Origin: Sphagnum compactum | Taxonomy: Eukaryota | Direction of reading: 5' to 3' | Assembly: GCA_965153455.1 (NCBI GenBank) | Contig: OZ234493.1 | Location: 24,170,213 to 24,234,212 of the forward strand | Length of the DNA: 64,000 nt | Part shown: one piece after another, positions 2,618-41,149 of the stretch | Position numbering within the stretch: position 1 is the stretch's first letter | How the letters are laid out: each line of letters begins with the position of its first letter | Notes under the pieces: model-generated | The model's input: the letters and a program-made list of their open reading frames with translations, nothing else | The model's database searches: none | What the model was told of the DNA's origin: nothing | Translations under genes and position numbers: made by a program

Positions 2618-3323
2618 TTGATTGTCATAGACATGGGACCCAACCCAACCGGCCACCATGTTGAGCGGTGCATTTGCTGATCTTTCCAAGTTCTCAACAG
2701 TGACATGTCTTATACTCCGATCTTTAGGCGGATGAGACGTTTTGAACTCTGATCTTTTGGAGAGATTACAATGCACTACGATTGCATCACACTACCCAAC
2801 AAGTGCTTCTAGTGCTTTTCTTTGTTCCTTTTCTTTTTGGGGTGGGGATGAGGATGCTGTTGTTCAACGTACCTCACCCAAAATGAACCAGACAACACCA
2901 GACAACTTGTTCTATTCTAATAAGGAATGGTGGGGTACTACTGGGGTGCAGCATCACATATGCTCAACACCCCGACCCTTCCTCCACAACAAAAAGAGAA
3001 CCCAAGGGTCCTTTATCTGTAGATCATGTGCCTTCCAATATTTATGGTTAAAAAGTCCCCTCCACCAGACTCATAGAGAAAGAATATTGTTTGTGGGGAT
3101 GGAGTGAGAACGTACATCCTTTGTCTCACCCTGCCAAAAGAACAGTTTGGACAGAACTGGGGCACCACAACCACTTGCCCCTTCACCAGAACAAACTAAA
3201 GTGGGAGAATACAGTGGTGGGGCACCATGGGGAGTTCCCATACACATTATAACCACCAAGAACAATTGCTAACTGAGAAAGAAAACAAAATCATATCCAG
3301 TCATGATAAATGACAGAAGGAAT

Positions 3324-4283
3324 TCTATATAGTATAGGACGTCGTGGTCGTGAAGCTTTGGGATGAAATGAAGCTTTCCATCCGTCCATCCGTCCTCCAT
3401 CTCGTCATCCGTCCGTCATCCATCCAAACAGAACAAATATATATTCAAAAAAGGGAATAAACTAATAATAATAATAAAAACAGAAAACACTTTAACAATT
3501 AGAAACTTTTTGTAAACACTTAAACATGAAACAAAAAAGGGAAATACAGTAAAATAATCTTAAAGGAAAATTAAAAAATAGATGACAAAAAATAAGAAAC
3601 AAAACAGAGAGCAAAAGAAAGAGAAAAAAAACCATACTTGAAAAAAAAATGAGATTTGTCTTCTTTTTCCAAACTTCAAACCTGCATCTAATCAAACAAA
3701 AATAATTTTTTTAAAAAAAATTATTTTAAAACATATTAGAAAAACTATAATTTTTTGGGAAAAGAAAATAGAAACTAAATAAAATAAATAAACGCATAAA
3801 AATAGAAAAATAAAATGAAGATAGACAAAATAAGAATAGAAAAAATTAAAACATGAAACAAACATAAACAAAAAAAAAGTAAAAACACAAAAACTATAAA
3901 AAAAGGAATGGAAACAAATGAAACAAGGAAAGGGAAATACAGTAAAATCGTTTTTAAAAAAAATTACAAAAAAGAAGAAACGAAATAAAGAGTAGAAAAT
4001 AAGAAAAAATAAAACTTATAGTAATGAAGAAAAACCCTACTTGAAAAAGAATGAGTTGTGTCTTCTTTCTCCAAACTTCAAACTTGCATCCAAGTAAACA
4101 AAAAAACAAAAGTGAAAAAGAAACACTTTATTTTTATTATACAAAATAATAATAATAATAATAATAACAGAAACACATAAAAATAAAAAATAAAAAAGAT
4201 AAAAGTTTTTTTTAAAAATTAAAACATGAACCAAACATTGTTGAAATAACACACATGTGCATTAGGCATGGGGTTCAAACTAG
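3324..4283 (+). mobile_element. probable non-autonomous Helitron-like element with A-rich ~420-bp internal repeats
   Basis: 5' TCTATATAGTATA and 3' degenerate hairpin CATGTGCATTAGGCATG ~10 nt before CTAG|T (4280-4283). Internal unit ...TTCTTTYTCCAAACTTCAAACYTGCATC occurs at ~3660 and ~4065. The 5' flank is T rather than the canonical A. Confidence 0.45.
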
Positions 4284-5229
4284 TTGTATTGTAATCTCAA
4301 TGATGATCCACTATCCATAACAACGTAATCTCAGGGGCAGATAAATTCACCCCATATATTCAATTAAAATTTGAGTTCTCCAGGTGAAAAGCTTGTCTTC
4401 CATAGTGGACTCCATCGTCAAACCTCTGGCCTCTTCAAAACAACAGGAGGGTGACACAATCCTTGGCCCACCAAGTTGGATACAGTGACAAATTTTGCAA
4501 AGCAGTTTAGGAACTTTCATAATGTTCGCATAATTAAGTTTTAATAACAAATTTTGACATAATAAATTATTGTAATGAAAACAAAGTCTATTTGGAATGA
4601 CATAAGTTGGCTGTGTTTTTTTTATTTTGGGTGAAAATCAATATAATCTCCACTACAAATGATGAGCCATTATGCTTTTTTCTTTACATTAAAAAAAGAA
4701 GCATAATAGGACATAGGAGCCAGCCCTTCATTTGCTCAAGTAGATAGCTTCATCCTTTTCACTCCTCTAGAAGAAATATCGTTAGGTTTTATGTGAGATA
4801 TGGCAGCCCTTTCCTTGTGATTAGCTTTTATTTGTTAGCCTTCACTCCTTCATGGACGCCTCTGCTTTTTGTTTTGTCAATATCATACCTGGCATTATCC
4901 TTTTACAAAAGGTAATTCTTAGATCTACATGAAAAATAAATATCAATGACAAACCTACTAGTTATTACATCAACAAAAATATTCATTATATATACCAATT
5001 GTTATAGCATTAAACATATCTATATTGATATTTGTGCATCATCAATTGTAACTATGGTTACCTACATCAGACAATTTTTCATGGCTCTCTACTACCAATT
5101 TTCATCTGGTATTCATTTTGGTAGACATATATATTCAATGACCAATCATGCAACTACCATATAACCATCTAATATGATGAAACCTTACAAACCTTTATTA
5201 CAGGAAAAAATCAATCCAAAAGGGTAAAG

Positions 5230-6108
5230 GGAGAGAAAAAATGAGTATCACCATTCAAAAGCACCTTATGTCCTAAAGCCTTCACTAGCAAATCAGACAA
5301 GGAAGTGAGCAAGGGAAAATTTAAAAGAGCACTTAGCTTGGAAAGGGCTTCCTTAGCAACAGCAACTTGTTTCAATATGGAGGCTACCTAAACTCTTTGC
5401 AAAACCGTTGACACCTTCTACCTATAAAATGTGTGTACCAAAATGAATACCAGATGAAAATGCCCTTGGCTAATCACATCATGTTAGCACATCGATGAAA
5501 AATATCATCAACGTATTGGTGTAAGCACCCAAGTACTTTTGTGGCAAGAAGGATAGACACATCCACTAGGTGCCAATCATGATAGAGCCTTTCCTTTACT
5601 CGGATTACAATTGTCACAATCATTTCCCAATGAATGGTAGCTTGTGAAACTAAATCTATTTTAGTGGCATTAACAATGATGACATTAACTAGAATGTGAA
5701 CCTATCAATGGAGAACATGATATCAACCCATTGAGGTGTGAAGATTGAAGGGAAGACAATGGGAAGATGATGAGAGGTTGTTCACATGAACCTCAATATC
5801 TTTGGCAATGAAATCAACAGCATCTCAAGCAACATCGAGGGAGGTAGTGTGTTCCCCTGCATGAGAACATCAAAGAAAAATGTATCCCCATTGGGTCTAT
5901 AGGCTGACAATGGGAAGATGATGAGAGGTTGTTCACATGAAACTCAATATCTTTGGCAATGAAATCAAAAGCATTTCAAGCAACATTGAGGGAGGTAGTG
6001 TGTTCCCCTGCAGGAAAACATCAAAGAAAATGTATCCCCATTGGGTTTATAGGCTAGCCACATATGCAACGGGTTAAACTAAAAGCTACTAAATGAGGGA
6101 GACCTAAC
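5230..6108 (-). pseudogene. 3' part of a decayed RLE-type (CRE/R2-like) non-LTR retrotransposon ORF (zinc knuckle and restriction-like endonuclease region)
   Basis: Minus-strand remnants INPMGIHFL*CFPAGEHTTSLNVA*NAFDFIAKDIEFHV, VDIMFSIDR..VNVIIVNATKIDLVSQA and LHQYVDDIFHRCANM fit the CCHC + PD..D RLE tail pattern from memory. Confidence 0.6.
5755..6055. repeat. ~150-bp tandem duplication within the non-LTR relic
   Basis: GACAATGGGAAGATGATGAGAGG...CCCCATTGGGT(C/T)TATAGGCT occurs at 5755-5905 and 5906-6055. Confidence 0.92.
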
Positions 6109-6598
6109 TAGTGTTGGGCAAATATCCAAATATCAAGCCTAGATATTAGCCCAAATATCACCCATGATATTTCAGTGGATGTCATTTTGGGTGGTATCTA
6201 ACTTGTCAAATATCCATTATGTGATATCATGTTCTTTGATATCTAAGGTCTATGTTATATACAAGGATCCTCATATCCAAGTCGAATATCAAATTCAAGT
6301 TTGGATTAGGATATCAAGTTAGTAATTAAGTTAATAATTAGGTTAGTAAATGATTAGGTTAGGAAAAAGAAAAAAGTTGTAGTTTGCAGCCACCACAACT
6401 TAACATTTTTCTTAATTTCTAATTTGTCGTGATGTGTAGGGTCGTGACGTTCGGTGTCGTAAGGGTGTAAATCCATAGTAAACTCTACTGAACAAAAAGA
6501 CTAAAACCAGTCAAAGGTAGAAACTAATCAACCAAAAATAGATGCACGCACATATATATACAATGCACAAGAGGAGGTAGAGATGAAATTCTCATGTA

Positions 6599-6610
6599 TC
6601 CCCCCCCCCT
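6599..6610 (-). promoter_or_regulatory. polypurine tract (candidate plus-strand primer)
   Basis: AGGGGGGGGGGA on the minus strand, ~40 bp after the pol stop and ~175 bp before the element's 3' end, where a Gypsy PPT normally lies. Confidence 0.6.
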
Positions 6611-6651
6611 AGACCTGAGCCAGGAAAAGCGTGGCATGGTCTGAATAGAAA

Positions 6652-6825
6652 TCAAACTATTGCAAGAGAACATGATGAACAGTACCAAATGCTGGCAGGA
6701 ACTTGAATGAGCTCCGGCTTGAGGCAAAATAGATGGTATCCACCATTACAATTATCGCAAAGCAGCATCTGATCAGCATCGTCTGTCCTCTGACATACTT
6801 GACATAGATAGTCAAGTGGAGGAAT
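6652..6825 (-). pseudogene. PHD finger (C4HC3) at the integrase C-terminus; not in the ORF track
   Basis: In frame after the TAG at 6826-6828 (probably a mutated TGG): IPPLDYLCQVCQRTDDADQMLLCDNCNGGYHLFCLKPELIQVPASIWYCSSCSLAIV*. All eight zinc ligands and the conserved W before the last CxxC are present. Confidence 0.93.
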
Positions 6826-8000
6826 CTAAGTCGGCGTGATGATGGTAGGATCTAAGTTCGGCAGGTGGCAAGGCGCACAGTTTTTGGAGTGATCTCGAAT
6901 TGTGCGTCCGTCAGCTCTTTGCAACTTCAACACACCTAAAGGCTTGATCGCCTTAATCCTCAAGATAGTGTGATCAGAAGAAACGTCTAGAGTATCATTA
7001 GGTTGCCGCTGGAGATACACAAAGTCACCAACATCAAATTGTTTCACCTTAGGTTTGTAAGTGCCATTTTGTGTGTGTGCATACCATAAGGTGTCTCGAT
7101 GTTGTGCAATGGACAAGTTCTCCATGGCCATGGGCATAACCCTCCTCTACGATGACCCTAGCCCAAATGGCTGGGGAGTCCAAGTCCACAACCTGGTCCA
7201 TTTGAGTAGCAATGGAAGAAGGTGGAATGGGATGTTTCCCAAAAAGTAGAAAGTAAGGAGAGAAATGAGACAAAAAGGCGTGTTTGGACATCCTGTAACC
7301 CATGGCGATGTAAGGTAGGGCCAGGTCCCAATCCTCTTTGTTCCTAGTGAGGCAAATCTTCCGAAATCCCTTCTTACATGTCTGAACCATCCTCTCTACG
7401 AGCCCATCAGGTTGGGGATGATCCCTTGAAGTCCGGCGATGGTCAATGAGAACATGATCAAGTAGGTCTTGGAATTCTCCTCTGAATTCTGATCCTTTAT
7501 CAGTAAGGCACTCAACATAAGCCCCAAACCTACTTAAGACTTGTTGTAAGAAAGCCTAGCTGGTGTTGTGTGATGACTTGTCTGGCAACGCAACAAGCTC
7601 GACCCACTTTGAAAAATGCTTAATCATAATCATGATGTAGACATTACCCTTGGAGGTCTGTGGTAACTTTTTAGCTAAATCAGATGACTAGAATATGCCT
7701 TAAATAGGGAATGGAAAAAGCATGAGCTGTCGAAAGGAGAAAAAAGTTCTCACTCTATCACATTGTTCACACCTAGCAATGACGTCTCGAACTTGAGCAT
7801 ACATACCTCTCCAATGGTAATGAGGAGCGAGAAGGCTATACGTACGCTTAACACGAAAGTGCCCAAGCTCCGACTGTACCTTCTGAATAAAACCAAGCCA
7901 TTCATGTGGTGGAGGAACCACTATGTCGCCTTGTGGTAAGCATCGGACGAGGTGATTGTCCCTCCATGGGTAGCTTTTGGACTGTTGTTGTATGCGATCT
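6826..8000 (-). pseudogene. DDE integrase with HHCC zinc-binding domain and SH3-like C-terminal region
   Basis: SELGHFRVKRTY...HWRGMYAQV...CEQC. Core DLAKKLPQTSKGNVYIMIMIKHFSKWVEL, VLTDKGSEF, HPQPDGLVERMVQT, WDLALP..MGYR, SPYFLLFG. Then FDVGDFVYL. Confidence 0.93.
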
Positions 8001-8248
8001 CGATGACTTGATGTAACTTGGGGAGGGTGTTCCCCATGCTGAAGAAACCTCAAAGTGTCCAAGTCCTCCCATATATCCACAATGGGATGTTCAACCAGGT
8101 TACGTTGCAATAGTGCAAGATAACTAGATGCATAAGATACATGTATAGCTGGAATCTGGTCGAAGTCTTGCCTGGCTTCTGAAAAATTTTCAGAAGTAGT
8201 GAGGGGTCTTTGTGACATGGTATCCACGTTCTGATGTGTAATACCAGA

Positions 8249-8600
8249 TTAGTGAATAACCTTGAACTCATACTCCTGAAGTATAAGTGCCCAACAAGCT
8301 AACTCACCAATAAACTTATCATTGGTCATCAACCATTTGATAAGCGGGTGGCTGATATACAAAGTGAACTTGGTGCCATAAAGATAGGGCCTGAAATGTA
8401 TGACAGCCCATACAACAGCAAGACACTCCCCCTCGTATGAAGAGTAGTTGCTTTCAGCCTTGTTGTTGCTTTGGGATGCATAGGCGATAACATATTCCTT
8501 GCCTTCTTCATCAAGTTGGCCGAGAATAACACTAATACCTAAAGCACTCCAATTAGTGTGTAGAATGAAGACCTTGCTGAAATCAGGTCTTCTCAAAATG
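8249..8600 (-). pseudogene. RNase H (Ty3/Gypsy type)
   Basis: PDFSKVFILHTNWS (TD>TN), VIAYAS, NYSSYEGECLAVVWAVIHFRPYLYG, WALILQEYEF. Confidence 0.93.
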
Positions 8601-8662
8601 GGGAACTCTGAAAGCTTTTCTTTGAGTGTGTTGAAAGCTTCCTAAGCTTCTTCACTCCATGT

Positions 8663-9420
8663 CTAAGCAACATCCTTATTTAAAAATGCATAAAGAGGAT
8701 GAACAATAGTCCTGAAGTCTTGGACATAAATCCTGTAGTAATTACATTGTTCGATGAAGCTCCTCAAAGTGTGAACATTAGTAGGATTGGGCATCTCCAA
8801 AATGGCTACTACTTTGGCCCAATGAGCCATAATACCATTTGACAAAATTCTATGGCCAAGGTAGACTACTAAGGTGATAGCAAATTCACACTTTTTAGGA
8901 TGGATCTTCATATTGACTTCATGGAGCCTCTTGAATAATTCCTCAAGATGAACCAAGTGCTACAGGAGTCCCTTGCTATGCACTAGGACGTCATCTATGT
9001 AGCACTTTAGGAAATCTGCCCCTTCGAGAACTTGGTCCATGATTCGCTGAAAGAAGACAGGTGCATTTTTCAATCCAAAAGGCATCACAAGCCATTCCCA
9101 CAACTTGTTGCTTCCATGGAATGCCGTTTTCTTGCGATCTTTTGCAACGAACACAATCTGGTTGAAGCCTTGTTTTAGATCCATAATTGTGAAGATGTTT
9201 AAGTCTCTAATGTTATCAAATAATTCTTCATCTGGCATTACTGTAGTGGCTGCGAAATCAAAACTTGATGGTTGAATGAGACTAGCCTCATGGAGCTTTT
9301 TGCATCTTTCATCTACCATTCATTCTTATTCAACCTATGCCTCCTCCGATAGATGGGTGTCTCATCTGTAAGGTCTATAGAGAACTGCATGGTCTTACAC
9401 CTACCTAAGTCTTTCATTGA
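8663..9420 (-). pseudogene. reverse transcriptase (Ty3/Gypsy type); disrupted with an internal deletion
   Basis: Motifs MDLKQGFNQI, KTAF, VMPFGLKNAPVFFQRIMD, YIDD (9001-8990), KCEF..VVYLGH and LRSFIEQCNYYRIYV. The usual K..R.C.DYR.LN...D.YP.P segment is missing between TTVMP and DEELFD. Confidence 0.95.
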
Positions 9421-9825
9421 GAATGCGAACACATTCTCATACTTAATTAGCAAGTCTGTGACCCGATCTCTTTCCTTCTTGGTGAGCTGGTTCCCCATAA
9501 CGAAAGGGTAGTCAAAAACACATGGAATGGAGTTGGAAAGTGTGTTTGAAGAACCTGGTGTATTGGGTTGTCCATTATCCAACTGCGTAGATTCGTAGAA
9601 GGTTGTAATTGTTTCTCCAGAAGCTGATGTACCTCCAAATGTATTAGAAACAACTTGAGTCAAATTACATGGTACCTCCTCCCCACCAACACTAAGAGTG
9701 AAGTGTTGAGTGTTGAAGATAGGCAAGTGTATTTGGTCGGGGTGCCATGTAGTCGCATCGCCAAAACTACAAGCTGATTGAATCAGTGCTAGTGTTGTGT
9801 ACATTTGAATGAGTACACAAGTTAC

Positions 9826-10770
9826 CAACAACCATGTAAGGGAGTTCAAATCCATGCCTCTCCCCAGTAGAACGTTATGCTCCAATCTAATCACCTTGGT
9901 GTGACTAGTAGTGCCAGTTTGGAACCCCATAGCCCTTTTTCTTTCTTCTAGGCTTGGTTCATCCCAAGTGGTTGAAGCATGATGATACACCACGCTTGGT
10001 CCATCTCCTTGAAAGGCGTGTGCTCTTGGGAAGGAGACAAAGTTGGGCCAAGCACCTCTTGGTTTTCCTATTGTGTTCGCAGGACACCAAGGAGGTTTTT
10101 CTTGCCTTGTAACTGGTTGGCAAGAGCTTTGATCATCCAATATGTGATAAACCTGCAGGTGGGGGTTTCTGATGGTGTATCTCAAAGCCAACTGCAGATT
10201 TAAGAATGGTGCAAGGTTGGTCCACCAGTTGCACAGTTGGTGCGCATAGGAACTGCATTGTGCCGCATCGAATAAGAGCGGTTCTCCAAGGTAATGCTTG
10301 ACCAGCGTGTAGTGCTCCTGGACTTTCTCCCTTTGGTCAAGTTGAAAATGGGTGTTCTCAATTACATAACCAAGTGTAGGAGAAATGGATTGAGCCTAGG
10401 TGATTAATCGTACCATGTCCGTGAAAAGATCCGATCTTGTGTCACTCAAATCTTTTCCAGATCCAACCGCTGAAAATCCTTGACATTCCCAACCTAAAAT
10501 GATGAAATCGACGAGGCCAAGTAATTCCATATGCTTCTTCTAAATTAGTTGTATGTCAGAGGGTAAGAAAGTGAAACTGGCCTTCCATGCGGTGGTTGCA
10601 AATTGTTGTGGAAATCTGGCTATGAGCTCCATCATTCTGATGCCGCCACTTGCCTTGCAATAGGATCAATGTCTACATAGAAATACTTCCGAACCACCAT
10701 CCTTGACTGTAGTAGGGCTTCGAGACCTATACCAATACCACCAAAGAGCTCTAGTAATGTAATCCCCTCT
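9826..10770 (-). pseudogene. C5 cytosine DNA methyltransferase domain (DNMT3-like) embedded in pol between protease and RT
   Basis: Manual translation gives the motifs in order. I: LLELFGGIG (10757-10731). II: YFYVDID. III: PSDI. IV: VDFIILGWECQGFS (Cys 10485-10483). V: RSDLF. VI: YVIENT (ENT 10359-10351). VII/VIII: FDAAQCSSYAHQLCNWWTNL. IX: EPSLEERKRAMGF. X: LLGRGMD. One frameshift (~10640) and two TAG stops. Confidence 0.93.
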
Positions 10771-10981
10771 TTAGGCGATGTCCAAGTGATTAGCTGACGA
10801 AGTACCAGTCTAATCGGTTCGCCATGGCTCTCCATGTTCTTAAAACTAGACAAAGTTTTGACCAAAGGCTCGTGGGCTGCTTTGAACCTCTATAAAATCT
10901 TTGGTCCGTGTTGAATGTTAGTAGGAACCACCCTCAAGCTTTTAGTAGCTTGGGCATAAGCTGTCTCCTCTTCATCTCCTT

Positions 10982-11458
10982 CTATCGACTCGTGGCTAGC
11001 TTGTTGGATGTAGGAAATGGTGTGTGCTTCCTTGAGCATACAATGGTGAACCATAGGATTATGGTTCCCATGTAAATCAAGGGTATGTATCCCAGGTGGT
11101 GGCCATTAGTCTCCCAATCCACTCGGTAGTACACATGCTCGAACCAATTGTCAATTGTGAAACTTGGTGGAAACAGGGCCTCTTGCCCAATGAGCACATT
11201 GTAACTGGTGGCATTTGTGACTAAACATTTGACCTGTAGGCAAAGCTCCTGATCTGTACTTTCATTGAAATTAAGTGCAATCAAATCTGAGCTCTCCCCA
11301 AATACCTCCTCTGCGCTCCCACTAGTAGTGCGAATTTGCCACATAGATTTTCGTAGTTTGGAGTCGAACATGCCCATCTTCTTGGCAAATTGAACTCTAA
11401 GAATCACTCGTTGGGCACCTGTATCAAGAAGTACCACTTTGGGTGTATATCCTCCCAC
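10982..11458 (-). pseudogene. retropepsin-like aspartic protease domain of pol
   Basis: PKVVLLDTGAQRVIL active-site motif and downstream YNVLIGQEAL (ILG-type motif). Confidence 0.88.
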
Positions 11459-11620
11459 CTAGATTGCTAACTCAATATTGTCAACAATGGCAACTCTGGT
11501 GGCGATGGAAGTTCTCTCACTAGGCACCACGTTCAAAAATGAATGAAAGACTTTGTGGAGAGAATGGCTATCCACAACGCCTTTGCTAAATAAGAAATCC
11601 ACAAGTGAAGTGTTCTTAGT

Positions 11621-13925
11621 TCACTTCTGATATCTGAATGTAGAATCAGAGGTAGGAGAGCCCACTAGTTTAGCCATGTTAGAACTAGTGACCAGATTAC
11701 GAACGCCATCTGCAACACATGAGTTAATCGAGTGTCTCTCCAAGGTGTTGGATGAGACCCTTGTAGCATGTGGATCAGGGATTGGTAGAAGACCAAACGT
11801 AGTGTTCAGGGTATCCTTTAGTATTGCAATTATGTCCTTAGTGCTTAACTTCAAATCTTGAAAACTAAACAACAGTGTACTCACAAGCTTTTGCGCCACT
11901 TCACACATTTGAAGTTGGCACTCCATAAGCTGATCAGTGGAAAATTGTGTGTTTTCCTGATGTACGTGTACTCCTAGGACACAAAAATTTGATGCCCTAG
12001 TAGCTTTTTGTGTAGTAGTCTCCTCCCCCCTCGCCAACAAGGTGCGTTCTTTTCCGTGTTGAGAGGACGAAAAGATTATGGCATGACTACTCGAACTCCT
12101 CTAGCCTTGGTAATAGGACTTGAACTAGATGCAAGTCCATCAGTTTGAATTACTTGCCTAATGGTAGAAACTGTAGGTGCCACATTAGCCTCTTGTGCCG
12201 CGAAGTAAGAAAGGCAAAAAGAAGTGGCAAATTTTGGTGTGAAACTTAAATTATGTGCATTAAAAAGAATATACTCCCGAACCATGGCATCGTGTGAGAC
12301 GCCATAGAACGAGCTAGGAGGTCCCTCCCGTGATCTTGAACCCTGTACAGGTTGAGAATGACTAGCTGGTTGGGAAGACTTGCTTTTTAGATTAGCAAGT
12401 TGGGCCCTTAATGATTCGAGTTCATTTTGTAGAGTTTGAATTTGAGCGGCATGGGCTTGAAGCACCTCCCTCTTGTCAGCATTGTGCTCCTTCTTTTTAG
12501 CATTCTTACTAGAATTACCCTTGGTGGGGAAAGCCTGAGTGGAAGGCTGAGGTGTTTTGGCTTTTGGTTGAGGGGCAGTGGAAGATGCTGGCAGATTTTG
12601 CCATGGTAATCGAAGTTACTTTCCGTTCCGAGAACTTGACAAAGCAAACAGCTTCCTGATGTTCTTCTTTCCCACAATAATCACAAAAGAGATCCTCGAA
12701 AGGAATGTTGCAGTCACTAGATTTATGGGCAAGATTGCCATAGTAGTTGCAAGAAGGTAGGATGGGTGTAACCGAGTGCACCGATTTAGCCCTTGAAAAA
12801 GAATGTGATGATCTGGTTGGCGTAGCTGGTGGAGGCTGAGGCCATGAACATGATGGAGGCCTCATAGTACTAGCCTCATAATGTGCATGAGCTAGTTCCA
12901 GCTTTTCAAAAATGTTGTACACATCTAGCAAAGTGTACGAATCTCCAAATTCTACAAACACCCGTTGTAAAACCTACACATGGACTGTCAGAGTACTTTC
13001 CAACGAACAAAGATACCGATGGGCAACTTATAGGTCTATGATGTTCTAAGTATCCTCTTTAAGGTTGAGAAGCCTCTTATAGAACATCTTGAAGGTTTCA
13101 TCCTTCTGCCGATAGAAGGTGGCGAGTTGCAAAAAAATTCAGAACTTTTGACCGGAAATTCTAGCTCAAGAACTCGAAAGAATTCCCTCACTGGATCAGC
13201 AAAACTTGGTGCATCGATGGTGGGAGGAATGTTTGCGGTAGTAACAATGAGTTGTTCAGGAGAAAGGTTTATTGAAGTAGGTACCGGATTTGGATTATTG
13301 GGCACAATCCAATGATGTGCAATGGCAGCTTCCAGTGCAGCTTGAGAGGCGGTGGCGATGGCTGTGGCATAAGCTGGATTGGGGATTTGGGTGACGCCCA
13401 AAATCCTCGGAGAATGTTGCTCGTGGACATCCAATGCCTCATAGTGCACATAACGAACTAGTTATTTGAATGTGAATGTCTCGATGTAATTAGCGCCATA
13501 CTTGAACTCCAATTCACAAACCATGGTTGAGAAAGTTGCCTTGAACTCCCTCAAAAAAATGGTACCTGGCCTTCCGCTAAATTTCTCAATTCTCTCAGAA
13601 GAATTCCTGACCTCCATGGTGTATATGGGTGTACAGGTAACGCCTTGTAGCGAAATATATGGTGATGGTGTGAAGTTGGTGCGGCAGCAGGCGTACCCCA
13701 CTAATTAACCCTTCCAAATGGACTCTGATGTACCGTTGATGTAGTGTAACTTAAACCTAAATTCCTTATAGGAGTTGTACTAAATGACGGTGGTGTTGTA
13801 AACGCTTCATGGTACCATCGTGAAGATCGTGAGCTTAAAGAAATCGACTCAAATGATTGTGTGTTGCTTCATAGCTAATACCTTGGTTCTGGCTGAGCAG
13901 TAGTGCTCTCATCATCCGAAGACAT
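11621..13925 (-). pseudogene. gag: gag-like polyprotein region with two CCHC zinc knuckles and a coiled-coil stretch; disrupted
   Basis: Fragment IEKFSGRPGTIFLREFKATF, knuckles SCNYYGNLAHKSSDC (degenerate) and FCDYCGKEEHQEAVC (ORF 12515-12961), and coiled coil QIQTLQNELESLRAQLANLK. Candidate ATG at 13925 (MSSDDESTTAQPEP). Several stops and frameshifts. Confidence 0.75.
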
Positions 13926-14100
13926 GGTGTTCTCCCGTGCCCCAAAATTTTGTAGCAATACAGAGCACTAGTTACAAAGTTTTAACACAACATGTGGTTT
14001 GAAGAATACGGTGCGTCGACGAGGATGAACGATGACTGACGGACGTCGGTGGACAGTAGGGGCCAGACGAACGGACGTGGACGAAACTATGACAATCGTT

Positions 14101-14198
14101 GAACGGAACAAAGACGAACGTCAAATGAAACGATCTGAACCGGAACGGACCAAAGATGAACGTCAGATGAAACGATCCGAACCGGAACGGACCAAAAT
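14101..14198. repeat. 42-bp CpG-rich tandem repeat (~2.3 copies) in the element's 5' leader
   Basis: GAACGGAACAAAGACGAACGTCAAATGAAACGATCTGAACCG / GAACGGACCAAAGATGAACGTCAGATGAAACGATCCGAACCG / GAACGGACCAAAAT. Confidence 0.9.
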
Positions 14199-14740
14199 AG
14201 ATTGAAACAAAACGGAACGGAACGGACGGCGCTACAAAGCAATCCGTGTCCGTAAACTCTACAATGATGGCCTGGATGTAAATCAGTGCGTAGATGCTTA
14301 GTGGGTACTTAGTAAGCGTGAGTGAGATCGGAAGCTTAGGCTTGTAAAAGCTTGTAGTAGTAACCACCATGGGCTTTTCCGATGTCCCTTCTCCCTCGCT
14401 TAAGTTGTTCCTAATTATTGTTGTTGTTCCAATTGTAGCTGCAGTACAAGAGTAAAAAATAAAAATAAAATAACAACAACTCTAAAACACAAGAAACCAA
14501 CAAGCAAAAAAAACCCAAGAAACTCAAAGCCAGGAAAAAGCTGTCGCTTTCAACATTAAATGACATAGAGCAATTTTTCTAAAATTAAATTGAAAAGAAA
14601 GAAAGAAAACGTAGTGTATGTAAACGGTAGTCATGTAATAGTCGTCGTGAGCATCTAGAAACCAGTCTAACTATGGAGGAAAAATTTTGCTGACAAAAAA
14701 ATTCTAGAAAACTTAACATGAAAAGGGAAGAGCTTGGCTT

Positions 14741-14855
14741 TTTATATAGCCGTCAACAAGCTGAAACCCTAAACAAGCCATAACCCTAAAAGACTTAATA
14801 GCATATTGTAACCTAAAAATGTACATTAACCTTAAGCGCGTACATTAACCCTAAA
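14741..14855 (-). promoter_or_regulatory. candidate element promoter: TATA box with upstream telo-boxes
   Basis: TATATAAA on the minus strand at 14741-14748. AAACCCTA at 14764-14771 and AACCCTAA near 14782 and 14848. All lie within ~180 bp of the element's 5' end. Confidence 0.5.
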
Positions 14856-16441
14856 AGGCATGATTGACATGCCTGTAACCGCCCATCATGTAAGAGGCCA
14901 TGTATACGGGCATGACAAATTCTCTTTCATTCTTAATTTTAATTTTTTTTTTCTTTTTTTTGTATTTTTTCTTTGCTCTATTCTCACACTGTACTTACCC
15001 TTTCCTTGGCCTCTTGCAAGTTATTGTAACATTTGAAGTAAGTTTTTGTTTTCATTCTTTTGTTTCCTCTTTTCTATTTTTATTTTTTCCATTTTTCTAT
15101 TTCTTGAAGTAAAGTGTTTCTTTTTTTTATTTTTGTATTTTTTTTGATTGGATGTAGGTTTAAAGTTTGAATAAACAAGACAAATCGCATTCTTCCTTAG
15201 GTTTTTTTTTTCAATACTATAAAAATAAAAATAAATTGTTTGCTCTCTATTTCGTTTCTTTTTTTTTTAATTTATAAAAAAATGTGTTCAACTATATTCC
15301 CCTTCGTTTATTTCATTTGTTTCCATTCCTTTTTCTTCTTCTTCTTTTGTTTATGTTTGTTTCATGTTTTCCTTTTCTTCTATTTTTATTTTATCATGTT
15401 TTCATTTTTAAAATATTTTTATGTGTGTTTTTTTTTCAATTTTCTTTTTCAAAAAAATTAATGTAAAAAATTTAGTATAAATAGAGTGTTTGTTTTTAAC
15501 TTTTGTATTTTTGTTTGTTTAGATGTTGGTTTGAAGTTTGGAGAAAGAAGACAAACCTCATTATTTTTCAAGTATGGTTTATTTTCATTACTATAAGCTT
15601 GTTTTCTCTTTTTTTTGCTTTTTGATTTGTTTTTTTTTTCTTTTAAAAATATCTTTACTGTATTTCCCCATTTTTGTTTCATGTTTGAATCTTTTTGAAT
15701 CTTTTTTTCATTTTTTTCATTTTTTCTGTTTTAAAATTTAAATTTTTTTTTGTTTCTGGTTTTCTTACTAATTTTCATTTTATTTTCTATTTCTATTCTA
15801 TTTTCTGGCTTTTTTCCTTGTTTGTATTTTGTATTTTTTTGGTTTTTTTCTTTTTTGTTACAACTTTGTTTCATTTTATTTTCTTTTTAATAACTTGTGT
15901 TCTTCTTCTTTAACTTGAAATCTATTGTGTTGTTTCTTTTTTTTTCTTCTTGTTTCTCAAAAAAATTCATATTTTTTTAGTTTTAATTTTAATTTGATTT
16001 TATTTTTTAAAATTGCAAGACTACATGAGCTTTCTAAGTTTTTCAGCCTTCACATTGTAAAGGATTATTATATTTTTTACTTTTGGCTTGTCATAGTCAT
16101 TTTTTGATATGAAGGGAGTGAAAAATGAGTGCTCATGTACTTTGGAAATGTTTTGTAAATGTTTGCATGCGCACATTTTAGATTTTAGGATTTTTTTTCA
16201 AACCTTTTGTGTAAACTTGTTTTAAATCCAAGTTGTTGATATTTGAAACCGATATCTGATTGAAAAATAACAACAAATATTAGGTAGATTGATATCCTAG
16301 TTGAATAAAAAACTTAAAAATATGATATCCGGCCTAGATATTTAAATTGGAAAATAAATTCTAATATCTAGTTTAAATAAATAATTTTGACATATCCTTA
16401 TCTAACAGATATCACAAAAAGATGATATTTGCCCAACATTG

Positions 16442-16700
16442 GACCTAACCTAATGCATAGCATTGAAGAAAAGATGTCTAAAACCATTGAAGTGACAAAA
16501 TGATTAGACAACCAAAAAGCTAGGCACTTGAGCTTGGACCTATGTAGAATCTCAAACATGCATGATGAAAATCATATATTATGTCAAAAGATATGTTGGA
16601 AAATGATTACTTGTGTCACATTTCTAAAATGCTCTCTTAATATTATACTTGATAGCAAACCAAACATCAAATAATACTTGTCATTTAGATCAAGTTTGAA
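16442..16700 (-). pseudogene. upstream continuation of the same non-LTR retrotransposon ORF
   Basis: HHACLRFYIGPSSSA*L ... DIFSSMLCIRLG|LPHLVA. The frame reads through the GACCTAAC TSD once the hAT is removed. Confidence 0.65.
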
Positions 16701-19700
16701 TAGTTGAGTTCCTATTCAAATTCCCACATCTAGGGAATAGCCTAGCAACAAAAGTAAACCAATAAAATATATATTTTTTGTGCCTTGCAAGGCATATGGT
16801 TATGATGAATTGTTCAAACTATGGTGATTAATTATTTTATATATATATATATATTGGCATTTTATTTTTATTCATTACATTAATTACCTAGAGATTTCTT
16901 TTTGCATGTGCTCTTAGATTTTCTTTATATTTTATTACCATTTTCCATTACATAAATGCTTTGAATGTGTTTTTAACCTATTGATTGACTTTATCATTTT
17001 TTTGTTTATTTGTTTTTAGGATGTTTGACATTTCATGTGTTTATGTTTGTAATGAAAATTGCAAAAATAATTGTCTTTTAAACTTTGAAATGTCCGATCC
17101 TTGTGTAATTATATTTCCCTCTATGCTCACCCATTTATATCCACATGGTATATATATGATAAATGATGAAATATTCATTAAGTACCTTCACATTATGAAC
17201 AAGGTAAATGTTCATATTTAACTTTACCCTTGTCTAGATTGATGATTTTGTAAAGCCTTTATACCCAAGTATCTTTACTTGGTTTGGAAAGTTTTTGAAG
17301 CCTATATATCATTACCTTAGTTAACTAATGTCTTTTTTGAGGAAAAAGATTCCCGATATTTAACTAATCTATTAAAATCAATACACCCACCAACATTGGT
17401 ATGAATAAGCAAGTAGTCTCATAAAGATGCAGCTTTTGGGCAACAACTATTATATGTTGAAGATGTTTAAACAAAATTATCTCTAGCAAACTTTCATTAA
17501 TTGTGTGGTTCATAGCTCATGATTGGGGAAGGCAAATTTGTAGATAAAATGCAATCACAAATTCCAATTATAACCATTTCATTCTCCCTATTAGGTAGTG
17601 GTAATATCATATAAATGTGGAAATAATTTTATGGTGTGGTTGAATTTTTTTAATTTTATCCTTGTAAGAGAGTTTTGTATAACTATTTAAAAACACTTGA
17701 AACATTGAAAATTTAATAGCAAACAACATCAAAAGAATGCCAAATGAATTTGAAAAAAAAAGGCATATTATATGTTTTTAGGCAGGAAGATGGTAATCAA
17801 AATTTGATTATAAAAGATTCACAAATTCAACTGTTTACTATTGCCACAAAAAATCCCATTTTATTAGAAGGTGTGATTGATGTAAAAACTTTTTTTTTTT
17901 ACAAAAAGAATTTTGGATAAGCATGATATAAACATTATTTCATTAACAAGAAAACAATGAAAGTTGCATTCGTATCATATAAATTGATAATAGGGCTAAT
18001 GATACCATGGCTTTATCACCATTCGAAGTTAAAAAGATGAATTAGCAAGAACAAAAGGACATCAAAATTCACTATAATCATGTTCCTAACAAAAGAAAAT
18101 ATTTTTTAAATTCTAAAAGGATGGTGGATATTATATGAAAAAAATAGACATCTCTTTATAGAATCCAACAAATGTGATTGTTAGTGGTGAACTTTTACAC
18201 CCAAATTATGACACACCTGTAAAAGGCATCACTAAAGATTTCTTGCCTTTCCTAATTATTAGGGATACAACATATCCATAACAACCAGGGCATACAAATT
18301 CAATGTGTTAAGTTCGCATATTTAGCTTCATAAAACTTCACAAACATATGCACACCACTTATATCTTGAAACAAAATATAACGTTGTGTATTCACACACA
18401 CATAAACACACCCACATACATGCACAAATGTTTCCATCATTTATTATTTTATATATCATAGTTAAAGAATGTCATATCATTTCTATTGCTTGGAGAACCA
18501 CACTGATTTTCATGGCCATGAAGGTTCTTAATGCCTAACCCCATTAATTCTCTCCACTATTTCTTTATCTCCCCCTCTTCTTTTTCCATATGGTCCATCT
18601 CCCATCATACCCCCTATATCCTCCTACAAAGCCCTTTACAATTCTTACAATCTCTCTTGCATTGGTAATACGATATTTAAGCTTGGCTGTCATGTCCAGT
18701 TTGGTTACCGTCACGTTGGTTATCCTTCAGTTGGACTATTCTCATGGGTGGATGCTGAGGAATTTCAAAAACTCACAACCTTCTCAAAAAGACTCCGAAT
18801 TGAACGTTTTAAGTATTCATTTTATAGCCCTTGAAAAGAGCTTTTCAATGTCGTTTTCAATCGCGTAAATCAGAGTTGATTTGACCTCTCAAATGTCGAA
18901 AATGTGAAGTTCGGAACTCAATTCTAATCATTTTGATAGGCAATTTCGGTAGGCACATTTCAGTAGGTAATTAAATAGGCACATATGTCGGTAAACACAT
19001 ATTTTGGTACCAATCTACAACTCTCATCATCCACTAATCTGGCTAGTTATTAATCTGGTTATTTTTGGTTAACATGTAATCCATTTCCCTAATAGTGATT
19101 ATGATTCACAACTTCTTTCACAACTTCTATTTTATCCATGGAAACCATTTTGATATGGATTGGTCAAAAACAAAGTTGAACAAATAATGCAAAAAAAACC
19201 CAATCATCCATTTGGATAATTTCAGTAAATGGACATGTCATAGAATGGAACATGTTATCAAAGAAATTTGATGATTACAACACTTAAAATAGGTCCACCC
19301 AAGCAATACTAATATGATAACATGTTTTGGATGAAGAACAATAAAAACACGTTGATTTGGTTTTTAAATGGTTTGGGACAACATATCTTCATAAGTTGCA
19401 ATGGTTGGTAAATGGCTTTGCATAGTTTAAATCCTACTATGAATAGGATAGATTAATTTATTGGCCCCACAACACAATCTCCCACTGTTGTTGATTGGTC
19501 AGATTATTTAATCTATCCACTTGTTTTGTTATTAGTGGTTTGCCACTTTCAAATGTATGGTTGGGCTTGAATTATGTAAATAAGCAGTAATGAGAAATAT
19601 TTGATGGACGCCCCCAGAAATGGGTGGAGCTACTTATAGAAGGCACTTTTCAAGTAAAAGAAAAAGTCACAAATGGAAATAATGAAAGAATTATTATCTA

Positions 19701-33719: not shown

Positions 33720-36100
33720 AGAAACCTTTTAGCTATCCTAAATATAAGAAAGACTCTGATCTAGATGCTCATGTACGAGTATTCAAAGCCACTATCAAAG
33801 CTAATTATGAAATGATAGATGAGGAAATAACAAATCTATTCAATTTTACATTGAAAGACAATGGATCAAATTGGTGCAATAACTATATGCGAAATCATCC
33901 AAATTGTAAATTTGTAGATTTAGAATAGGTTTCTTGTAGACAATATTGGATTTTGGGAATAGAAGATAATCCACAATCAATTAACGTGAATGCCCAATTG
34001 GTTGAGGAAAACATGAGTTCTTTGATAAAGTTGTTGATTGAGTACAAGGACATCTTTGCATGGACATATAACGACCTAAAGGTCATACTTCCAAAATTTG
34101 CACAACGCCATATTGAGTTCGGCACATCAATTCCACCAACACATTAGGCCATGTACAAAATGAATCAAAATTATGTTGCGGCTATTAAATTAGACATAGA
34201 TAAACTATTGGAAGCTAAATTAATATAACATGTAGAAAAAGCTATTTGGCTGTCACCAATAGTGGTGACTCCTTAAAATAATGGAAAACTTAGATCCTAT
34301 GTAAATTTCAAAAAACTAAATGTAGCCACAAAGAAAGATCCATACCCATTCCCTTTTTCTAAAAGATGTTCTAAACGTTGTTGCAAGGCATGATGTTATT
34401 CCTTTTTAAATGGATACTTTAGATATCACCAAATATTTATAACACCAGAGGACATATACAAGATAACCTTTGTAATAGAGATACTCTCGATATCACCAAA
34501 TATTTATAGCACTAGAGGACATATACAAGATAACCTTTGTAATAAGGAGCTTTTACTTGGGTAGTGATGCCATTTGGAGTGAAAAATGGACCTCCTACTT
34601 ACCAAAGGGTAGTAAGTAAAGCCTCCAAAGATTATTTGGACAAATTCATGAAGATTTTTCTAGATGATTTCATTATTTATAATGACATGGATACTCATCT
34701 AGATAAGCTTAAACTATGCTTCCAAAATTGCAAAGAATTTGAGATTAATTTGAACCTAGTAAATGTGCCTTGAAAACTTTATAGTATTTTCAAGGATGAT
34801 ACTAGGGTTTATAGTATCCAAGGTAAACTAGTAGTTTGTAAGAAAATCTAAGCCATAGTTTAGATGTTTGTACCCACAAATCCATAGCAAATTTAGGTAT
34901 TCAACTGAGTGGCTTGGTTCTATAAATGTTTCATCAAGAATTCTACATTCATAATGGCCTCAATTACTAAACTCATGAAAAAGATAGAATAATTTCTATG
35001 GACCCCCAAGTGTTAGGTAATTTAGGAGTTGATAAAGCAAAAATATATAAAAACACCTATTCTCATATCTCCAAATGGGGATATAGAGTTTCATGTTCAT
35101 ACAGATGCATCATTATTAGTTGTTAGTAACATAGAATCTAACAGGGAAGCATGATAAGCCTATTGTTTACGCTTTTAGACTTTTAAATAGAGTATAGAGA
35201 AATTACAATACCATAGTACAAGAAGCTTTAACAATGGTATTCACATTTCATACGTTCACACATTACTTACTAAATAATAAGTTTGTGTCCTATGTTGATC
35301 ATATGGCTTTGGTATATTTAGTGAACAAACCACATGTTTTAGGTTGTATTACTAGATGGTTACTTTTATTTTTGGAGTATGAATTCACAACTAGGACATA
35401 TACATGTAGTGGCAAATGCGTTATCTAGGTTACCATACATAATAAAATTGATAGGAATACCTAATCAAACCATAGATGTAACTTTGTTCAATTATAGTTG
35501 ATTTGGTTGGAAGAGGCCAAGGATTATTTATAGACATGACAAATGCCTAAAATCCTAACCAACACTTTAAAATAAAGGCTAGCAAAAAAATTAGAAACTT
35601 TTACGATACAAGATGAAATTATATACCCAAATGGATTAGGACAATAGATTTCAACGCTACATGTATAAAAGATCTTGCGGCAATTCCATGAGGGTTTTGT
35701 AAGTGGCCATTTGCAACAAACATCGTTGCAAAGATCTTAGATGTAGGATATTAGTGGCCCACACTATTTAATCACACTACAAAATATTGTAGATCTTGTG
35801 ACAGCTACCAATGAGTTGGAGGTTCAACAACACAAAATTTGGCTAAGTTAGTCACTACTTTCCTAGGATAACCATTTATGAAATGAGGATTGGATTTCAT
35901 TGGACCAATCAAACTAACGTGATGGTTCACATGTAATAAATATATTATTGTAATCATAGATTATGCTACCAAATGGGTGGAGGCCAGGGTGCTTTAAATG
36001 AATACTATGGCTCGACCACAACAAAAAAATTTGTGAATATATTTTGACTCACCTTAGTGACAAATCAAGGAGTTCATTTTATTAATGATGTTCTTAAGTA
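33720..36100 (+). mobile_element. heavily decayed Ty3/Gypsy (non-chromovirus, Athila/Tat-like) gag-pol remnant
   Basis: gag YPKYKKDSDLDAHVRVFKATIKAN...FNFTLKD; DIFAWTYNDLK; MPFGVKNGPPTYQR...IFLDDF; FHVHTDAS; YVDHMALVYL...RWLLLFLEY; PFMK*GLDFIGPI; IDYATKWVEA; TNQGVHF. The protease region is deleted (~33950) and there are many stops. Confidence 0.88.
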
Positions 36101-37150: not shown

Positions 37151-38339
37151 TATTTAATATTTAAATAATAACCAACTAACCAGTTTTTTTTTCGCAAAAT
37201 TTCGCAACCTGGTGACATAAAAAAGGCCTTTGAGAATTGGCCTAAGGGAATTCGATTGTTAGATTGGAGGCAGTTGCCAAGATGCAGTAGGCTATAATCG
37301 GGTGCCAATAGAATATTACTAGTGGCGCCACCTGGGTTGACCACCCTACATCATTGGATGCCACAACCCTCCCCACTATGGGCCCCTTCTCACATCTCAC
37401 TTCATTTAGAATTCACAACATTCACAAATAGTTGTGTGCACATTGAAATTAAGATCATCGCCAATAATAAATGCTGATCTTTCTTGGTAACACGTTTAGT
37501 AGGATGGGTTTTGTTAAATTTTGGAGGCTAGAAGCATAGAATGGTGAAGGAGTGAATGGAAAATTGGCGTTGTACTTTTGGGTGAGTGCATTCAAAGAAG
37601 ATCAAAGTACAAAATTGATATGCTTCTAATGGTGAAAGAAGATGAAACCAAAAGACATTGTATTTTTGTGTGAAGTTCATTTCAATAAAATCATGATATA
37701 AATGTTCCTTTTGAATCATTTGATTTGGTTTAAGTGTTCTTTGGTTAGGATTGGATGTCAGGCTAGTTGTAAATGCAAATCTTTTGAAGGAGGAGCTTAG
37801 GAACGATGCAAACACATGGCACCTTGCTCAAGGGATTTAGGATGACCAGATCGAATGCGAAAAAGGTACACAAGTTCTCAACTAAAAAACACGTTGAACA
37901 TTCAAATGTTTTTTTGTTTTTTGTAATTGTGCAAGGTTTGAAGGCCATCAAAATCTTGAAAGCTATAGGGTAAATAGGGTTCAAACTTAGCTTGCTAAAA
38001 ATGTTTCGTTGAGTTCGTGTTTTTTGCTCAAATGTCGAATAGCCTCTCTTTTTGTTTCTTGCTTAAAGGTTCATTGTGAAAGTTTTACAACACATCCAAG
38101 GTCATTAATTTTTTTACCTTTGTCAAATTTGCAATCACTGTTGTGGTATGTGTCTCTTTGGTCATGAGAGGTTCACAATGCATTTGACCGTATTTTCTCA
38201 TCAAAATTTCCATTACATTTGTGGTCTGCAAACATCGATTTTGATCATGAAAGGTCTATAATGCATCCAAAGTCACTATTGTGTTTCCCTATCAAATTTG
38301 GCATCATGTAAAATGTCTTTGATTGTGAGCAAGTGCAGA

Positions 38340-38705
38340 AACGGTCAAACCTACAAAATCGATCAACCTTCTAATTAATCTTCTCAAAGATCTTAGTTTG
38401 TCATTAAACATCCTTGATCATCAGTAAGTGCAAAGTTGGTCAAACTTGTAAAATCGATTGATCTTCTAGTTCGTTTTTTTGAATCCTAGTTTGTCGTCGA
38501 ACGTTTTTAATTATGAGTTAGTGTAGAGTTAGTCAAATTTGTAGAATTGGTTGATCTTCCAATTGTTTTTTTCTAAATCCGAATTTATCGTCAAGCATCC
38601 TTGATCTTGAACAACTACAAAGTTGATCAAACTTGTAAAATTGGTTGATCTTCCAATTAGTCTTTTCAAATCCCAGTCTATCATTGAAAGCCTCATCAAA
38701 CATTT
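38340..38705. repeat. degenerate ~90-100-bp tandem repeat (~4 copies)
   Basis: Recurrent GTCAAACTTGTAAAATCGATTGATCTTC(C/T)AATT...ATCCTAGTTT motif at ~38345, 38440, 38532 and 38626. Confidence 0.75.
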
Positions 38706-39075: not shown

Positions 39076-39224
39076 GTTTTGTTGTGCTCATATATTAATT
39101 TTTCACTTCTATACGTTTCCACTTTCTGTGGTAGTCTCTAAAATAAGAAATACCTTTTGCCATAAGATGGTAGCTACCATTGGTAGACATGAGATTTGAG
39201 GTCTATAAGGAAGGCAACGTTGTT

Positions 39225-39600
39225 TTAAATGGTAGGCAATAACCACAAAGGGTTTGAAGGCAATATAGATAGTAGGCAACAACCACAAAGGATTTGAAAT
39301 TGTTGTAGATGGTAGGCAATAACCACAAAGGATTAGAAGGCATTATAGATAGTAGGCAACAGCCACAAAGGATTTGAAATTGTTGTAGATGGTAGGCAAT
39401 AACCACAAAGGGTTTGAAGGCATTATAGATAGTAGGCAACAGCCACAAAGGATTTGAAATTGTTGTAGATGGTAGGCAATAACCACAAAGGATCTCCAAG
39501 CATTACAAACAGTAGGCAACATTCACAAAGGGTTTGTAGGCATTGTAGATGATAGGAAGTAGCCACAAAGGATTTGTAGGCACTATAGATGGTAGGCAAC
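39225..39600. repeat. 40-bp minisatellite (~10 units) with alternating A/B monomers
   Basis: (G/A)GTAGGCAA recurs at 39231, 39271, 39311, 39351, 39391, 39431, 39471, 39511, 39551 (degenerate) and 39591. Confidence 0.95.
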
Positions 39601-40079
39601 AATTGTACGAGGTCTAAAAGTGGTTATGGGTCTTTTTCAAGTCTATAAAGGACAGTAGTTTGCTATAGGACGGTAGTTATAACATGATCTTAAGCAAAGA
39701 AAAAGTAGTCCTTACCTTCAAGTCTTTCCATTTTTCTTATTATTTTTTTCTAATCCAACAACCATTTGCATGTTAGTAATTAAGTTGCCACATCCCGCAA
39801 TTTTACACATACAACAATAAAGAAAAATGGGGAAAAAATTAGGGATTATTTTTGGTGTGACATCATGAACTTCATAATAAAAAAGCTATCCATGATGTTT
39901 AAAATAAACTAAGCAGAAAAAATACATTTACATAAATGTATAATAGTTTAGTATATGAAAAATTTATAATTTATAATTTTACATACATCTTGGAGTTTGC
40001 ATGCATGAACATTTTGACCTAATCACTAACCCATACAAATATAAATGTGAAACTTACCAAGATTATATACATGCATTTC

Positions 40080-40820: not shown

Positions 40821-41149
40821 CACTGACCATGCATTATAGTGCATTGTGTAGATAAAGTTAAAGGCTACCTCAATTTCCATTTCAAAAATAGGGTTCAAAT
40901 GATACTCATAATTGAACATAATGAATTTTACAACTATAAACAATATTGACCATTAATTAATGCAATAAGAGATTTGCAAACTTAAGAAGACCATATGTGG
41001 TTAAAATGTAATCAAATCGAATAGTACAGTTGCAATGTGTGGGGGTGGAAAAAGGACAAGATTTCTTCTCATGATAGAATGAAATGTTTATCCCCTTTTG
41101 CTACTAAAAAATGCAACAAAAATTAACTCCATGGCCTTTGACAAATCAT

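Follow-up and report, generated by a model that had tools for sequence, protein, structure and literature searches.

A degenerate Ty3/Gypsy element of the moss Sphagnum compactum belongs to a family with split direct repeats

A 64,000-nucleotide stretch of the Sphagnum compactum genome (assembly GCA_965153455.1, contig OZ234493.1, positions 24,170,213 to 24,234,212; hereafter the window, whose coordinates are used throughout) was analyzed in this study, which revealed a retrotransposon at 6425-14917 that belongs to an old, very abundant Ty3/Gypsy family whose full members carry split, interleaved direct repeats. The element lies on the minus strand, as do all of its features described below, and its own orientation runs from 14917 to 6425. 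Read directly, it starts with TGTCATG and ends with CACGACA; on the plus strand the ends TGTCGTG...CATGACA form a 7-bp inverted repeat with six of seven positions matching, the single mismatch being CG versus CA. A target-site duplication, AATT, is present on both sides (6421-6424 and 14918-14921). These ends, with one CpG-type mismatch, and the flanking AATT had been reported by a first-pass annotation and were read here as it gave them. Both junctions of the insertion are bridged by contigs of a sequencing run, X1 (5912-6470 and 14762-15557).

The element is composed of three parts, designated A, X, and B. Block A (14584-14917) comprises the first 334 nt, starts with TGTCATG, contains a TATA box (14748-14739), and ends in ...CAATTTAAT(T), directly after which a conserved stretch opens X. 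A 19-nt tandem unit in block A (approximately 14830-14870) is present in one to three copies among family members, and a single element may carry different numbers of it in its two A blocks (L006 and L060 among the loci described below). X extends from the leader through gag-pol to a G-run and is 7,984 nt long in the window. The leader (13926-14583) differs in length among copies and contains 42-nt tandem units (14101-14227) detected by repeat search; within the family, both conservation and read depth are lowest here, and contigs skip 249-475 nt. Block B (6425-6599) comprises the last 175 nt, starts with ATACATGAG directly after a polypurine-tract-like run of ten G residues (6600-6609), and ends in ...CACGACA. 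Near its terminus (6426-6462) are three TCACGAC/TTACGAC-type units at 15-nt spacing, which may be integrase-binding sites. On the plus strand they read GTCGTGA, GTCGTGA, and GTCGTAA at 6426, 6441, and 6456, which are the GTCGTRA motifs noted earlier at these positions.

The coding region of the window element shows the order gag-like region, aspartic protease (PR), DNMT3-like methyltransferase, reverse transcriptase (RT), RNase H (RH), H2C2 domain and integrase (IN) core, and PHD finger. The gag region (12076-13925, with the ATG at 13925-13923) consists of several broken frames and was assigned by position and by motifs in the translation; CCHC-like knuckles occur in its open reading frame (ORF) at 12515-12973, and no Pfam match was obtained for the region. 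The protease (10982-11458) matches PF13975 with an E value of 1.8e-5 and 25.7 bits, which is under the curated cut-off of 28.2. Between protease and RT lies a DNMT3-like cytosine-5 DNA methyltransferase (9313-10889; PF00145, E 1.9e-8, 34.6 bits, cut-off 22), which carries one frameshift and two stops; the match was obtained on a read-through translation with X at the two stops. DNMT3A and DNMT3B are its best solved relatives. The RT is present in two pieces (8663-9319; PF00078, E 9e-17) and is followed by RNase H (8249-8641; PF17917, E 5.5e-32; PF17919, E 6e-31). The integrase, including its C-terminal part, is interrupted by frame breaks (6826-8248; PF17921, E 8e-12) and comprises an H2C2 zinc domain (7700-8248) and a catalytic-core remnant (7049-7555) that matches residues 1244-1328 of Ty3 Gag-Pol (E 5e-4). 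A PHD finger (6655-6825; PF00628, E 3e-13, 50 bits) is located at the C-terminal end of the integrase region and may act as a chromatin-targeting module. Its position after the integrase is where chromoviruses have a chromodomain.

The predicted Pol is of the Ty3/Gypsy type, with the order PR-RT-RNase H-integrase and with Ty3-like RT and integrase. None of the 16 ORFs of the element matches a Pfam family of tyrosine recombinases. Related proteins show the same domain order: protein P0002 (820 aa, 86% identical) encodes the methyltransferase, RT, and RNase H in a single open frame and matches the Ty3 RT structure 4ol8 (E 4e-62), and P0003 (1214 aa) joins protease and methyltransferase, so that the two together show PR-DNMT-RT-RH. 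A Protein Atlas search with the plain 360-aa ORF gave no usable match. The window copy had been described as a complete gag-pol element, which does not hold: its coding frame is split into more than 12 pieces, and approximately 105 nt of the RT, present in other copies, are missing (blastn against the loci; break at E5686/5690).

No direct repeat between the ends of the element was found, either by a repeat search of 5000-17000 or by blastn (word size 7) in which 6001-7400 and 13601-15400 were compared with the entire window; by both methods, the 990-nt region at the 5′ end shares none with the 175 nt that follow the G-run. The absence of a 5′ copy of the 3′-end sequence, noted in the first pass, is thus borne out. 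The same is true of the missing canonical tRNA-Met primer-binding site (PBS): a 12-mer of the tRNA-iMet type, searched with up to two mismatches, matches the window only at 600 (two mismatches), far from the element and less often than expected by chance. No tRNA genes for a PBS scan were present in the window or in the 920 kb of loci described below.

Contigs of four sequencing runs, representing four organisms, were mapped to 3000-17500 of the window. The summed depth over the element was approximately 3,300-7,300 in run X1 and 15,000-37,000 in run X11, versus 20-60 in the flanks; it rose in the bin starting at 6388, fell again in the bin starting at 15100, and was highest at block B. Contigs of all four runs (four to six per run) contain a joint from 6597/6599 to 14584/14585/14594, which indicates that block A is fused to block B, with X absent, in these genomes.

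We further collected 70 metagenome loci (920 kb in total), each with one exact match to a 22-mer from block B, and classified them by blastn of the element, individual reading of boundaries, and removal of duplicates. The raw script yielded 13 X-B-nn-A loci (nn denoting two nucleotides), 11 loci of X-B followed by flank, and 10 solo loci, and these classes were corrected by hand on reading the boundaries. Two groups, L026/47 with L049 and L028/34/66, which make up three loci in all, were moved from the flank class to X-B-nn-A, their first B being short of one 15-nt unit; L035 proved to be the same locus as L016; and L007/55/65 (solo) as well as L050/56, L019/52, and L031 (X-B-flank) were restored after filtering. 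The corrected set contains 16 distinct loci of the X-B-nn-A(-B) form, 12 in which X-B is followed by unrelated flank (L027 being ambiguous), and 10 of the solo A-B form. Wherever the 5′ end lies on the contig (L006, L020, L047, L050, and L060), A leads directly into X, as in the window. Four other arrangements, namely B before X, the G-run before A, A-B before X, and X joined straight to A, occur in none of the 70 loci. The full layout of the family is A-X-B-2 nt-A-B, and the window copy is of the A-X-B form, without the terminal nn-A-B block.

In place of two identical direct repeats at the outer ends, full members of the family carry A...A and B...B repeats that are interleaved. The earlier description of an element without long terminal repeats (LTRs) and with a non-standard build is therefore right in that the family is structurally non-standard, and falls short in that its full members do carry direct repeats, which are split. 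Similarly, the suggestion of a deleted or recombinant copy fits the window element insofar as it lacks the terminal nn-A-B, and does not account for the recurrence of the A-X-B form at 12 distinct loci besides the window. Searches for more distant families, by tblastn of P0002-P0004 against the loci, gave matches only inside copies of the same family, and 17 pattern matches to viral contigs with an RNase H protein yielded none that could be confirmed.

All three forms (A-X-B-nn-A-B, A-X-B, and A-B) share the ends TGT...ACA. Among 12 evaluable elements, the window copy included, seven are flanked by a perfect 4-bp duplication. One duplication encloses the whole A-X-B-nn-A-B composite in L006 (ATAA) and L020 (TCAT); the A-X-B form has ATAT in L050/56 and AATT in the window; and solo A-B units are flanked by GGTT (L003), AAAT (L007), and ATTT (L014). 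Two further elements (L040 and L046) show a duplication matching at three of four bases. The termini of the window copy are therefore more than a chance match: the same two termini occur in other copies with different 4-bp duplications, namely ATAA, TCAT, ATAT, GGTT, ATTT, and AAAT, which is what the first-pass annotation had proposed to look for. Within the composite, the spacer between the inner ...ACA and the following TGT... is 2 nt in all 16 loci (GT in nine, AC in three, AT in two, TT in one, and GC in one).

The boundaries between the blocks are equally regular. The G-run adjoins the start of B (ATACATG) in every aligned row, window and loci alike, and the terminal B begins at the same base with ATACATG and without the G-run, as is characteristic of plus-strand priming at a polypurine tract. 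At the other boundary, a candidate self-priming site (approximately 14586-14571) is formed by the first bases of X and overlaps the last nucleotides of A. In better-kept copies, a stretch complementary to this site lies approximately 32 nt downstream of the TATA box in block A. In three of the six copies with a 5′ A (L006, L020, and L050), the longest exact complement is 10-11 nt and lies 32 nt downstream of TATAAAA, a length reached by only 1, 3, and 8 of 500 shuffles, respectively; in L020, matching C>T and G>A changes are found on both sides of the candidate duplex. In the window, L047, and L060, this complement has decayed. The pairing probably fits self-priming of the Tf1 type, the site itself being a candidate only. 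Among loci, the A-to-B joint varies by 0-4 nt; in a 300-nt alignment of 23 loci, no other internal window is as variable in length, as expected of joined complementary DNA (cDNA) ends.

Because B starts at the G-run and A ends at a priming-like site, the unit of reverse transcription appears to be B-nn-A, with the integrase ends inside it. We therefore favor, with a confidence only somewhat better than even, a split-repeat Gypsy family in which B-nn-A is the LTR made by reverse transcription, integration proceeds from end-joined (circular) cDNA, and the window copy is a dead derivative. The 5′ end of the RNA would fold back onto the A/X site and prime its own reverse transcription, as in Tf1, and the product would be a linear cDNA, (B-nn-A)-X-(B-nn-A), with ordinary LTRs of approximately 511 bp from polypurine tract to primer site. 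The integrase ends would not lie at the tips of this cDNA; they would be abutted within each LTR as ...ACA-NN-TGT.... Joining of the tips, the end of A to the start of B, would produce a two-LTR circle, and a DDE integrase nicking both strands at one internal ACA-NN-TGT would open the circle and insert it as A-X-B-nn-A-B with a 4-bp duplication. Nicks placed after each CA, 2 nt apart, would leave ends resembling the 3′-processed ends of retroviruses.

An element of the A-X-B-nn-A-B form would be self-regenerating, with the 5′ A supplying promoter and R and the internal B-nn-A supplying U3 and R. The A-X-B form might originate from a one-LTR circle, from linear cDNA cut at both internal sites, or from a full copy through homologous deletion across its two B blocks, and A-B units might represent either the stretch across the circle joint or the product of homologous deletion between the A blocks. 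Only A-X-B-nn-A-B keeps both a promoter-bearing 5′ A and a complete internal U3-R, which suggests that the A-X-B form of the window, unable to restore its own LTR, is a dead end. As a tentative extension, to which we give rather less than an even chance, this lineage may integrate obligatorily from two-LTR circular cDNA cut at a built-in ACA-NN-TGT; split repeats may have evolved, or even first existed, in an integrase-bearing Gypsy element; and the family may form, together with an element of the alga Klebsormidium, an old streptophyte lineage with its own DNMT3 and PHD reader.

Several observations weigh against this reading. No duplication is found in three of the 12 evaluable elements (L060/62, L018, and L012-/L024+). 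Within an element, A1 and A2 are 84-87% identical (non-gap positions) and B1 and B2 approximately 88%, no closer than blocks of different elements, so that these values do not demonstrate that the paired blocks arose together; where A1 and A2 differ in length (L006 and L060), the cause is the copy number of the 19-nt unit. The complement to the A/X site is at chance level in three of the six copies, the window included (91, 469, and 449 of 500 shuffles), as is the energy of the duplex in the window (60 of 300 shuffles), and the variation at the A-to-B joint may be slippage in AT-rich sequence. Both the circle and the self-priming are inferred from sequence. Neither an empty site (6420 to 14922) nor a joint from the end of B to the start of A occurs among the contig joints listed, a result that is uninformative either way. 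No locus contains an ORF of at least 350 aa, all copies seen are decayed, and there is no sign of present activity. Finally, the likeness to Klebsormidium rests on two figure legends, a description that does not decide between shared descent and a second acquisition.

A route like that of DIRS, PAT, and Ngaro elements is an alternative. The transcript would then run from the 5′ A to the terminal B, the internal B-nn-A would act as a bridging template on which the ends are rebuilt and joined, and the joint would be templated; the last step alone would depart from the DIRS-type route, a DDE integrase taking the place of the tyrosine recombinase. The layout of the moss family is identical to the published arrangement A1-[ORFs]-B1A2B2 with solo AB (PMC8547959, PMC4157794, and PMC8969392), as these accounts describe it, and the internal complementary region (ICR), which has the bridging role in DIRS-1, is reported to be experimentally essential (PMC7192593). 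However, the B boundary lies exactly at the G-run in all aligned rows and the A boundary at a primer-type complement, both of which fit ordinary priming at a polypurine tract and a PBS, and the A-to-B joint varies by 0-4 nt where a templated joint should be constant. We consider this route unlikely, if still worth serious attention.

Ginger DNA transposons combine a Gypsy-like integrase with TGT termini and a 4-bp duplication and have no gag, RT, or RNase H. A cut-and-paste transposon of this kind, with A-X-B as the autonomous form, A-B as its derivative resembling a miniature inverted-repeat transposable element, and an idle RT, would account for the 7-bp inverted terminal repeats, the 4-bp duplication, the subterminal repeats spaced by 15 nt, and the A-B units with their own duplications (10 loci). 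The moss family, however, has a gag-like region, PR, RT, and RNase H, together with boundaries at a polypurine-tract-like G-run and a candidate PBS. The sole deletion joint in A-B would have to coincide exactly, copy after copy, with both the G-run and the priming site, neither excision footprints nor empty sites were seen, and the 16 A-X-B-nn-A-B loci, with their 2-nt spacer and single outer duplication, would be left unexplained. We regard such a transposon as very improbable. The first-pass proposal of an intermediate between LTR retrotransposons and Ginger likewise fails on the presence of gag, PR, RT, and RNase H, on the G-run at the B boundary, and on the priming-type site at the A boundary.

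Still less probable is that the composite results from two insertions, a solo A-B having landed beside an A-X-B through an integrase that prefers existing element ends. The lack of greater similarity between the paired blocks of one composite than between blocks of different elements, mentioned above, would agree with it. Against it, the spacer is 2 nt, not a 4-bp duplication, in 16 of 16 loci, orientation and order are identical in all of them, and the outer duplications pair the left side of A1 with the right side of the terminal B (L006 and L020); a 2-nt spacer together with a single duplication around the composite is taken to rule out two neighboring insertions. The least credible explanation is an ordinary Gypsy element with A+B as its LTR, half of each LTR having been lost, or a chimera of two elements, with AATT matching by chance: A+B (509 bp, TG...CA) does resemble a normal solo LTR and the flanks are AT-rich, but A-X-B is found again at 12 distinct loci outside the window, including L050/56 with its verified ATAT duplication, none of the 70 loci has A-B before X or A directly after X, and two precise deletions would be required per copy.

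For a split-repeat Gypsy family, the closest published counterpart is KnitGypsy-Dnmt3 from the charophyte alga Klebsormidium nitens (de Mendoza et al., 2018; PMC5890265), which combines, according to that paper, Gypsy domains, a Pol containing Dnmt3, and a repeat structure “the same as that of a DIRS retrotransposon”, defined as A-coding region-B-A-B (legends of Figs 1e and 4c). By this description, the algal and moss elements are alike in their Gypsy domain set, in the Dnmt3-type methyltransferase within Pol, and in the A-coding-B-A-B repeats. They differ in host, an alga versus a moss, and the text of PMC5890265, as far as it bears on this element, gives no termini, duplication, spacer, primer sites, or integration route. 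Within the literature searched, the name KnitGypsy occurs only in that paper. Among the papers listed by literature searches on split repeats, Gypsy, and integrase, none describes, by title or abstract, split direct repeats in an integrase-bearing element, and none of those listed for Sphagnum Gypsy and LTR retrotransposons concerns such elements by title or abstract. The family is a moss representative of a type that has appeared in print once, and the present analysis newly describes the anatomy of its ends, spacer, polypurine tract, and priming site.

The arrangement of the repeats is otherwise known from elements of the DIRS order. Ngaro, PAT, and VIPER are described with the order A1-[ORFs]-B1A2B2 and with scattered solo AB units ascribed to recombination (PMC8547959, PMC4157794), and elements of this order are reported to have a tyrosine recombinase and no target-site duplication (PMC8969392); the methylase of DIRS and PAT is given as Dam-like (PMC5890265). 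The moss family shares the A1-internal-B1-A2-B2 order and the solo AB units, the window copy being without A2-B2. It departs from the DIRS order in its Ty3-like DDE integrase, its TGT...ACA ends, its 4-bp duplications, and the DNMT3-like type of its methylase.

Compared with canonical Ty3/Gypsy elements, the family retains the PR-RT-RH-IN order, Ty3-like RT and integrase, a polypurine-tract-like G-run, and the TG...CA ends with a target-site duplication within the canonical 4-6 bp. Its candidate self-priming site resembles that of Tcn1, for which self-priming has been predicted, and the Tf1/Sushi-Tcn1 group of self-priming Gypsy elements is reported to occur in mosses (Neumann et al., 2019; PMC6317226). 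In contrast to the canonical elements, the integrase ends of the moss family would lie inside the LTR defined by reverse transcription, the integrated form is permuted, and there is no identical pair of terminal LTRs. The DNMT3-like and PHD domains are also additional; PMC6317226 contains no occurrence of “methyltransferase” or of “PHD”.

Retroviral integrases have been reported to cleave two-LTR junctions in foamy virus (PMC1180852) and HIV-1 (PMC1905944), and these accounts resemble the cleavage proposed here in that a DDE integrase acts on abutted LTR ends within closed DNA. In the retroviral case, however, the route is secondary or disputed and concerns the joint between two complete LTRs, whereas in the moss family the abutted-ends site, with its 2-nt spacer, would be built into each LTR and its use would be recorded in the integrated copies.

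LTR circles are regarded in retrovirology as by-products; if the proposed route is correct, they would be a productive intermediate. The classification of transposable elements ties split direct repeats to tyrosine recombinases, and an abundant plant family with a DDE integrase bears on both views. The genomic record, with its TGT...ACA ends, 4-bp duplications, and internal 2-nt site, makes integration from joined cDNA ends directly testable, and the family bears on the origin of DIRS-like architectures. At a practical level, LTR finders would miscall these elements, taking A as the LTR, finding no duplication, and reporting A-X-B copies as LTR-less, so that the annotation of moss repeats and the dating of insertions by LTR divergence are affected. 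The DNMT3-like and PHD domains extend the published case of a retrotransposon with a chromatin enzyme to a land-plant genome.

Other features of the window were observed around and beyond the element. The flanking sequence had been labeled a hAT interior, a label not confirmed here, as none of 12 flanking ORFs of at least 110 aa matches any Pfam family. The insertion site is bracketed by an A-rich (3514-4238) and a T-rich (15043-15796) stretch, each of approximately 700 nt, that are imperfect inverted copies of each other (about 71%). In all four runs the region 3484-4451 is also present in many copies (summed depth 800-16,000), unlike 15100-16067. On the plus strand, 34558-35386 holds what remains of another, distantly related RT/RNase H, with 32-38% identity to the RT and RNase H of the element (tblastn). 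Arrays of tandem repeats are present at 38312-38688, 39220-39601, and 40021-40824, with unit offsets of approximately 80 nt and 160 nt by self-blast.

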